From Escherichia coli (GTDB lineage Bacteria; Pseudomonadota; Gammaproteobacteria; Enterobacterales; Enterobacteriaceae), in assembly GCF_050320075.1 (NCBI RefSeq), contig NZ_CP190018.1: 64,000 nt of DNA; one strand, 5' to 3'. Positions within the stretch are counted from its first letter, which is position 1; every line of letters begins with the position of its first letter. Below are positions 38,998 through 39,491 of the stretch, piece by piece. The notes beneath the pieces are model-generated. The model searched no databases and was not told the DNA's origin. It was given only the letters and a program-made list of their open reading frames with translations. Made by a program: the position numbers and the translations under genes.

Positions 38998-39491
38998 ATG
39001 ATACTTTGGTCTATGAAAAAAGAAACCGATATCCGGCGTGGAAGGCATTGTGTTTTCCTGATGCATGTTCACCTGGTCTTTGTCACCAGATACCGACGCC
39101 AGATTTTTGACCATGACGCGACAGAAAAACTACGCACTTACTTTTCAAATGTATGTGCTGATTTTGAAGCTGAACTGGTTGAAATGGATGGCGAACCAGA
39201 TCACGTCCATTTGTTAATTAACTAACCTCCCAAACTGGCGATATCCAGTCTGGTAAACAGCCTCAAAGGCGTATCGGGTAGGTTACTGCGACGAGATCGA
39301 CCAGATATTGCAGTCAGGTATTACTACAAAGGCGTTTTGTGGAGTCCTGGCTATTTTGCCAGTAGCTGCGGAGGTGCGCCAATATCCGTCATCCGCCAAT
39401 ACATTGAACAACAGCAAACACCTGGTCAGGTGGAAAACCGCGCCTTATATCCCCGCCCTGAAGGACGGGGTTTTACGGCGCACCGGATAAA
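38998..39491 (+). pseudogene. tnpA: IS200/IS605 tnpA (Y1 HUH transposase) with in-frame nonsense codon
   Basis: N-terminal 75 codons end at TAA (39223-39225) directly after the HUH motif HVHLLIN; same frame continues with ...SLVNSLKGV...YYKGVLWSPGYFASSCGGAPISVIRQYIEQQ typical of the TnpA C-terminus. Confidence 0.8.
39451..39470 (-). repeat. Subterminal hairpin of IS605-family element (tnpA-proximal end)
   Basis: ccccg-ccctgaagga-cgggg: 5-bp stem with the same 10-nt loop as the other end, about 21 nt inside the junction. Confidence 0.7.

Follow-up and report, generated by a model that had tools for sequence, protein, structure and literature searches.

An IS609 element interrupts yajI

The DNA analysed here, a 64-kb stretch that we call the window, is a piece of E. 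coli chromosome covering the secF-yajD-tsx-yajI-nrdR-ribD region. In it, the lipoprotein gene yajI is disrupted by an insertion sequence with two divergent genes, and the features of the locus are as follows:

37609..37738, plus strand: 5' fragment of the disrupted lipoprotein gene yajI
37739..39486, minus strand: whole IS609 element (IS200/IS605 family), 1,748 bp, which disrupts yajI
37748..37769, minus strand: RE subterminal hairpin, CCACGTCCTTCAGGGCGTGG on the minus strand, DNA fold z=-3.4
37782..38990, minus strand: tnpB (insQ-type RNA-guided endonuclease), an intact 402-aa ORF, divergent from tnpA
38998..39426, plus strand: tnpA pseudogene (Y1 HUH transposase), identified by Pfam, NCBIfam and alignment to IS608 TnpA (2a6m)
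39223..39225, plus strand: TAA nonsense codon, codon 76 from the ATG at 38998 and codon 71 from the ATG at 39013
39440..39481, minus strand: LE subterminal hairpin, with the core CCCCGTCCTTCAGGGCGGGG at 39451-39470
39487..39491, minus strand: target and presumed TAM, 5'-TTTAT-3', directly 5' of LE
39487..39896, plus strand: 3' fragment of the disrupted lipoprotein gene yajI

The strand of the element was taken from tnpB, which places LE at 39486 and RE at 37739. Its limits were set using the empty yajI site of K-12 together with the breakpoint of homology against copies at five other chromosomal loci. Compared with that empty site, IS609 lies in yajI without a target duplication, and it has no terminal inverted repeat. 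Both subterminal hairpins fold as stable DNA (LE z=-2.6, RE z=-3.4), and a 14-mer core, CGCCCTGAAGGACG, is found on the same strand at 37752 and 39454 and at no other place in the window. On the minus strand, the element ends at 37739 with ...GTCAA.

TTAT adjoins LE at all six chromosomal loci considered (nine copies). Since strain Ecol_316 has TTTAT in an uninterrupted yajI, the target at yajI is older than the insertion. In K-12, yajI reads TTGAT at the target position, giving Gln instead of Lys in YajI. Judging by such sequences, yajI alleles of the K-12 type may be without the target and TAM.

Nucleotide identity between the window element and the copies at the five other chromosomal loci was 98.0-98.7%. 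We named the element IS609 because it is 98.5% identical, over 1,748 bp, to the copy in DEC5D, whose tnpA carries the PGAP name 'IS200/IS605-like element IS609 family transposase', and 98.3% identical to the insQ element of K-12. With its Y1 HUH gene, subterminal hairpins, target without duplication and near-identity to these copies, it is a member of the IS200/IS605 family (IS609). No further IS609 copy was found elsewhere in the 64-kb window. Two unrelated IS200C-type elements are also present: one between proY and brnQ (53143-53652, minus strand) with an intact Y1 transposase ORF, MGDEKSLVHTRWNCKYHIVF..., and another (3 to ~250, minus strand) that is cut off by the start of the window. The IS200C-type TnpA is only about 28% identical to that of IS609.

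A nonsense codon separates the HUH motif of TnpA from the catalytic tyrosine

An earlier note on this DNA had described tnpA as continuous except for a single in-frame TAA just after the HUH motif. We translated the frame from 38998 to 39495, which runs MILWSMKKETD...GEPDHVHLLIN, then the stop, then PPKLAISSLVNSLKGVSGRLL...VIRQYIEQQQTPG..., with APISVIRQYIEQQQTPGQVEN also past the stop. The TAA at 39223-39225 is the sole internal stop. When it was read as Tyr, the frame matched Pfam Y1_Tnp (PF01797) over the full model (1-121 of 121, E=2.3e-41) and NCBIfam NF033573, 'IS200/IS605 family transposase', with 145.6 bits (cut-off 55), so Y1 homology lies on both sides of the stop. The Tyr-restored protein also matched Y1 transposases of known structure, from Sulfolobus, IS608 and ISDra2 (E=1e-17 to 2e-20; IS608 E=2e-19, ISDra2 E=1e-17). 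Alignment to IS608 TnpA (2a6m) puts the HUH motif (HVH) at 39202-39210, before the TAA, and the catalytic tyrosine, equivalent to Y127 of IS608, at the TAC of 39400-39402, 59 codons past it. There is no unbroken polypeptide that holds both the HUH motif and the catalytic tyrosine, as the TAA falls between them. PGAP calls tnpA at the identical RefSeq locus a pseudogene with an 'internal stop'.

The earlier description was thus borne out for the single stop and its place relative to the HUH motif. Continuity of the frame held internally, but a second change had been overlooked: the natural stop is gone. The codon at 39427-39429 (plus strand) is CAG, where the reference IS609 tnpA has TAG after ...QQQTPG. 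The divergent copy on the CH425 plasmid, about 90% identical in tnpA, also has TAG at this position, and TAG is therefore the ancestral natural stop. CAG is found here in most chromosomal IS609 copies as well. Having lost its stop, the tnpA frame crosses the LE hairpin into yajI and ends at 39525 (ORF 39337..39525). The CAG-extended frame accounts for the odd 'missing C-terminus' remark with which PGAP tags IS609 copies that have no internal stop.

Codon 76 was TAT before the stop

Ten copies were aligned, with the window copy as the reference. Locus, state of codon 76 and other lesions in tnpA are listed for each:

Window, yajI: TAA; natural stop lost
K-12, ydcL-ydcO: TAT; TGA at codon 96
GF153, yeaQ-yeaR: TAT; no internal lesion
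Lstone01, yfaV-yfaY: TAT; no internal lesion
O157:H7, yfeD-gltX: TAT; no internal lesion
DEC5D, tetR-family gene: TAT; no lesion (reference, intact)
CFSAN061763, tetR-family gene: TAT; TGA at codon 96
Strain 98200, yajI: TAT; TGA at codon 96, 1-bp deletion, ATG>ATT
CH425, plasmid: TAT; 5' deletion
E2865, ydcL-ydcO: TAA; 5-bp deletion
CUVET19-1704, ydcL-ydcO: TAA; no further lesion

Codon 76 is TAT (Tyr) in eight other IS609 copies, which come from six chromosomal sites and one plasmid; a single T>A at 39225 therefore accounts for the lesion. Alignment with other tnpA genes, which the earlier note had proposed as a check, upholds its view that this is a point nonsense mutation and not a deletion. 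We had also considered that the window might carry the same stop as K-12; this was rejected, as K-12 has TGA at codon 96 and the window TAA at codon 76. A stop, frameshift or deletion was present in 6/10 of the tnpA genes compared. The CH425 copy lies on an IncI1-type plasmid (1236-2918) and is a diverged relative of IS609, 96% identical in tnpB and 90% in tnpA; its tnpB is intact, its tnpA is 5'-deleted and its LE flank is different (…GGGGTAAAAAAA).

Of 5,426 complete E. coli genomes, 5,412 contained IS609 sequence; the median genome had three matching places, and the copies number roughly 15,000 in all. The junction with yajI was found in 340 genomes, and 232 complete E. coli records matched the element together with its yajI junctions at 99% identity or more. 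Among the matches listed, at least 40 complete genomes were 100% identical over the 1,821 bp of element plus junctions. An exact 61-mer around the TAA occurred in 1,017 records; subtracting the 340 genomes with the junction leaves at least about 677 records with the TAA outside yajI. For comparison, 2,596 records had at least one copy with TGA at codon 96, and a copy with neither stop was present in 2,106.

These counts decide whether the stop is real. A sequencing or assembly error at 39225 would have to recur in the at least 40 independent complete assemblies that are identical among the matches listed, in the 232 records that match the whole element at 99% identity or more and in the 1,017 with the exact TAA 61-mer. 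Identity across so many independent complete genomes rules it out, and we give it practically no credence. Nor do we expect full-length TnpA still to be made by recoding or read-through of the stop. The downstream frame is open and identical in sequence to stop-free copies at other loci, which would suit such a product, but nothing else speaks for it. TAA is a standard, efficient stop codon of E. coli, and the TAT of the other copies marks a plain substitution. There is also no recoding signal, the only Rfam matches within 37400-39700 being at the 3' end of tnpB. With TAT in other copies and no RNA signal close to the stop, read-through was likewise rejected as highly improbable.

The tnpB gene and its predicted omega-RNA

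The tnpB gene, which the earlier note had called intact, encodes 402 aa, the length of K-12 InsQ. Its product matched NCBIfam NF040570 (guided_TnpB) with 388.9 bits, contains the Pfam domains HTH_OrfB_IS605, OrfB_IS605 and Cas12f1-like_TNB, and aligned with TnpB of ISDra2 (8bf8) at E=7.7e-56. In this alignment, the residues corresponding to D191, E278 and D361 of ISDra2 (the RuvC D-E-D) and the CxxC...CxxC zinc finger are conserved, the D191 counterpart lying in LDAGV. The gene is thus intact as claimed, and, considering these residues, the window TnpB is presumably competent as a nuclease. The window copy does have three private amino-acid changes (P326S, A335T and E382G) and no private synonymous change, a weak hint that its nuclease may also be beginning to drift; an 'intact' tnpB may not necessarily be an 'active' one. 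A335T falls within the zinc finger, between the two cysteines of its first CxxC pair.

Across the copies compared, tnpB had 402 aa in nine of ten, and the exception was the yajI copy of strain 98200, in which tnpB is truncated too. pN/pS across nine copies was 0.26 for tnpB and 0.91 for tnpA (pairwise Nei-Gojobori, with few synonymous changes in tnpA), and in same-locus pairs tnpB gave 0.18-0.46. Among these nine copies, tnpB looks to be under constraint and tnpA does not.

The omega-RNA that would accompany TnpB was placed across the 3' end of tnpB and RE, with its guide in the flank:

37723..37910, minus strand: predicted omega-RNA, from position and sub-threshold Rfam matches
About 37910 to 37739, minus strand: predicted omega-RNA scaffold, overlapping the tnpB 3' end and RE
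37738-37723, minus strand: predicted 16-nt guide, UGAGUUGCGUCAUCUC, from flanking yajI DNA
TTTAT+TGAGTTGCGTCATCTC: target matching the predicted guide of the window copy

None of the curated omega-RNA families in Rfam scored over threshold. HgcC fell below it (37726-37849, minus strand; E=0.0084, 23.8 bits where the gathering score is 50), as did sot0042 (17 bits against 88). In earlier work, RNAs of the HgcC and sot families had been connected with the guide RNAs of TnpB. The sub-threshold matches to HgcC, sot0042 and RAGATH-18 cluster within 37726-37909 on the minus strand, over the tnpB 3' end and RE. The predicted fold is not distinctive (z=-1.84). Given its position and the sub-threshold Rfam matches, a putative omega-RNA may be encoded and produced here. 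A promoter scan returned two promoters against 1.6 expected from shuffles and is uninformative on tnpB expression, and a search of the literature under insQ and ydcM did not find a functional study of E. coli IS609 TnpB.

Probable loss of mobility

We propose that IS609, a 'peel-and-paste' element of the IS200/IS605 family, inserted 3' of TTTAT in yajI, and that a single T>A turned the Tyr codon 76 (TAT) of its Y1 transposase gene into TAA. The truncated TnpA would keep the HUH metal-binding motif and lack the C-terminal helix with the catalytic tyrosine; without that helix, it should be unable to cut and rejoin the single-stranded transposon ends. On this sequence evidence, we infer that transposase activity has been lost and that the window copy would no longer be self-mobile. 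As both end hairpins are intact, mobilisation in trans by a working IS609 TnpA is possible in principle. The divergent tnpB and the RE region that should encode the guide RNA are undamaged.

Whether a working TnpA is at hand can be judged in CFSAN061763, which has an identical yajI copy. Its ydcL-ydcO and yeaR-yeaQ sites are empty, and its only other IS609 copy, in a tetR-family gene, has TGA at codon 96 and TAT at codon 76. With this as the sole other copy, CFSAN061763 has neither an intact IS609 tnpA nor a donor of the TAA, and IS609 is probably immobile in strains like it. With the one other tnpA also dead, the term 'non-autonomous', which the earlier note had applied to the window copy, is a sound inference. 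The empty ydcL-ydcO and yoaG-yeaQ sites of CFSAN061763 also indicate that 'fixed' IS609 positions are polymorphic across E. coli.

The earlier note had further suggested 'TnpB domestication or decay', and here the two parts fared differently. Decay agrees with the dead tnpA; domestication does not agree with a TnpB that keeps its nuclease residues and an element that keeps both ends. The window very probably holds an ordinary decaying IS609 copy, with tnpA dead by the T>A and with tnpB and the ends kept.

Origin of the stop and persistence of tnpB

A dead tnpA would be the same functional outcome whether the T>A occurred in the yajI copy itself or was brought into it, and only the history would differ. 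The TAA may not have arisen in place at yajI: it could have been imported by gene conversion from a paralogue, or with a defective donor of the ydcL-ydcO type mobilised in trans, an account that we hold tentatively and would not bet on. E2865 and CUVET19-1704 carry the identical TAA in their ydcL-ydcO copies, the 61-mer with the TAA occurs in 1,017 records against 340 genomes with the yajI junction, and yajI::IS609 of strain 98200 has TAT. TGA at codon 96 is likewise shared by three loci (ydcL, tetR and yajI), and such stops common to several loci suggest gene conversion or trans-mobilisation of dead copies. When the window (36498-41111) was compared with strain 98200, the element differed at 27/1,748 positions and its nearest flanks at 5/2,329 (Fisher p=2e-6), a pattern that fits exchange between copies or insertion from donors that were already defective. 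The flank on the tsx side had 0/1,590 differences. The SNP blocks also look mosaic, with window tnpB bearing the signature of the tetR/yajI lineage and the TAA being common to the ydcL lineage. Against import, the genome of CFSAN061763, with the identical yajI copy, lacks IS609 at ydcL-ydcO and contains no other copy with the TAA, and with ten sequences recurrent mutation at the one site is a possible source of the pattern. No conversion tract could be traced at 39225, where the SNP patterns of the ten copies hold no informative sites nearby.

A different question is whether TnpB is kept for its own or the host's benefit, apart from the transposase, through domestication or guide-directed cutting of empty alleles; loss of tnpA would then be tolerated or even favoured. 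We think this unlikely. It would suit the presence of IS609 sequence in 5,412 of 5,426 complete genomes (median three matching places), the 402-aa tnpB of nine of ten copies beside a tnpA damaged in six of ten, and the pN/pS of 0.26 for tnpB against 0.91 for tnpA, with 0.18-0.46 in same-locus tnpB pairs. However, constraint seen between copies may date from the mobile period of the element, and the 2,106 records that keep a copy with neither stop make selection linked to the transposase possible. In the yajI copy of strain 98200, tnpB is itself truncated, and window tnpB has three private nonsynonymous changes against zero private synonymous ones. The element also differs from domesticated relatives of TnpB: TldR-type regulators have lost RuvC catalytic residues or are truncated at the C terminus, and their transposon ends are lost (PMC10705468), whereas window TnpB still has its catalytic residues and neither LE nor RE is damaged. 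It is accordingly doubtful that IS609 tnpB and its guide RNA are kept across E. coli by selection independent of their own transposase. We see an equally slim chance for the associated history, in which tnpA was repeatedly lost (TAA at codon 76, TGA at codon 96, small deletions, start loss) and the nonsense alleles were spread by conversion. Were it true, IS609 would be a TnpB nuclease nearing domestication, or one persisting by homing into empty alleles during recombination.

Comparison with known systems

The reading that we prefer, an ordinary decaying copy, has its closest precedent in the IS609 of K-12, whose tnpB is insQ/ydcM. The two elements are 98.3% identical. Both have divergent tnpA and tnpB genes and the same ends, encode an intact TnpB of 402 aa and have a tnpA that one nonsense codon has inactivated. 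They differ in site and lesion: the K-12 element lies at ydcL-ydcO and has TTA>TGA at codon 96 (window position 39284), and the window element lies in yajI and has TAT>TAA at codon 76. The tnpA pseudogene of K-12 is yncK; its stop codon has been described, and the element was reported not to transpose (PMC2891674). In mutation-accumulation lines, none of 758 new IS insertions was of IS609 (PMC5009759). The reference IS609 of O55:H7 DEC5D (WP_000604943.1, 143 aa), which is inserted between ytfB and yjfZ in a gene of the tetR family, has the same ends and the same TTTAT target as the window element, and differs in having TAT at codon 76 and the natural TAG, in place of TAA and CAG.

Among the model elements, IS608 (H. 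pylori) and ISDra2 (D. radiodurans) share with the window copy the HUH motif, the catalytic tyrosine and the RuvC D/E/D, which all align, as well as subterminal hairpins on one strand and insertion 3' of a short target. The window element differs from them in that its genes are divergent and not tandem, its target is TTAT and its transposase is a pseudogene. The targets of the model elements are TTAC or TTGAT. The TCAA at RE is also found in IS608, and divergent tnpA and tnpB occur in IS605 and IS606 as well.

Taken alone, the window copy carries little weight: it is one more insertion sequence with a dead transposase, and the K-12 copy is a published precedent. It is a real but ordinary IS pseudogene, of a kind of decay that is already known and already annotated by PGAP. 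Considering E. coli IS609 more broadly, the element is near universal, has several independent tnpA lesions and has a tnpB that is mostly intact and apparently constrained. This makes it a handy natural system, in a tractable host, for asking whether selection or mere lag lets TnpB nucleases persist after their transposases are lost, and how frequent sequence exchange is among paralogous IS copies.

For IS609, a dead tnpA next to a tnpB that looks alive is a known pattern, considering the K-12 precedent together with the work of Meers et al. (bioRxiv 10.1101/2023.03.14.532601), who found only about 25% of tnpB genes to have a tnpA nearby and noted that autonomous elements may be prone to degradation. 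The tnpB-only elements of the IS605 family described there resemble the window copy in having ends, tnpB and a guide-RNA region and no working tnpA, and both would therefore depend on a transposase supplied in trans. They differ in that the tnpA of the window copy is still full length and one base from intact; the window copy is an early stage of tnpB-only decay, not a deletion derivative.
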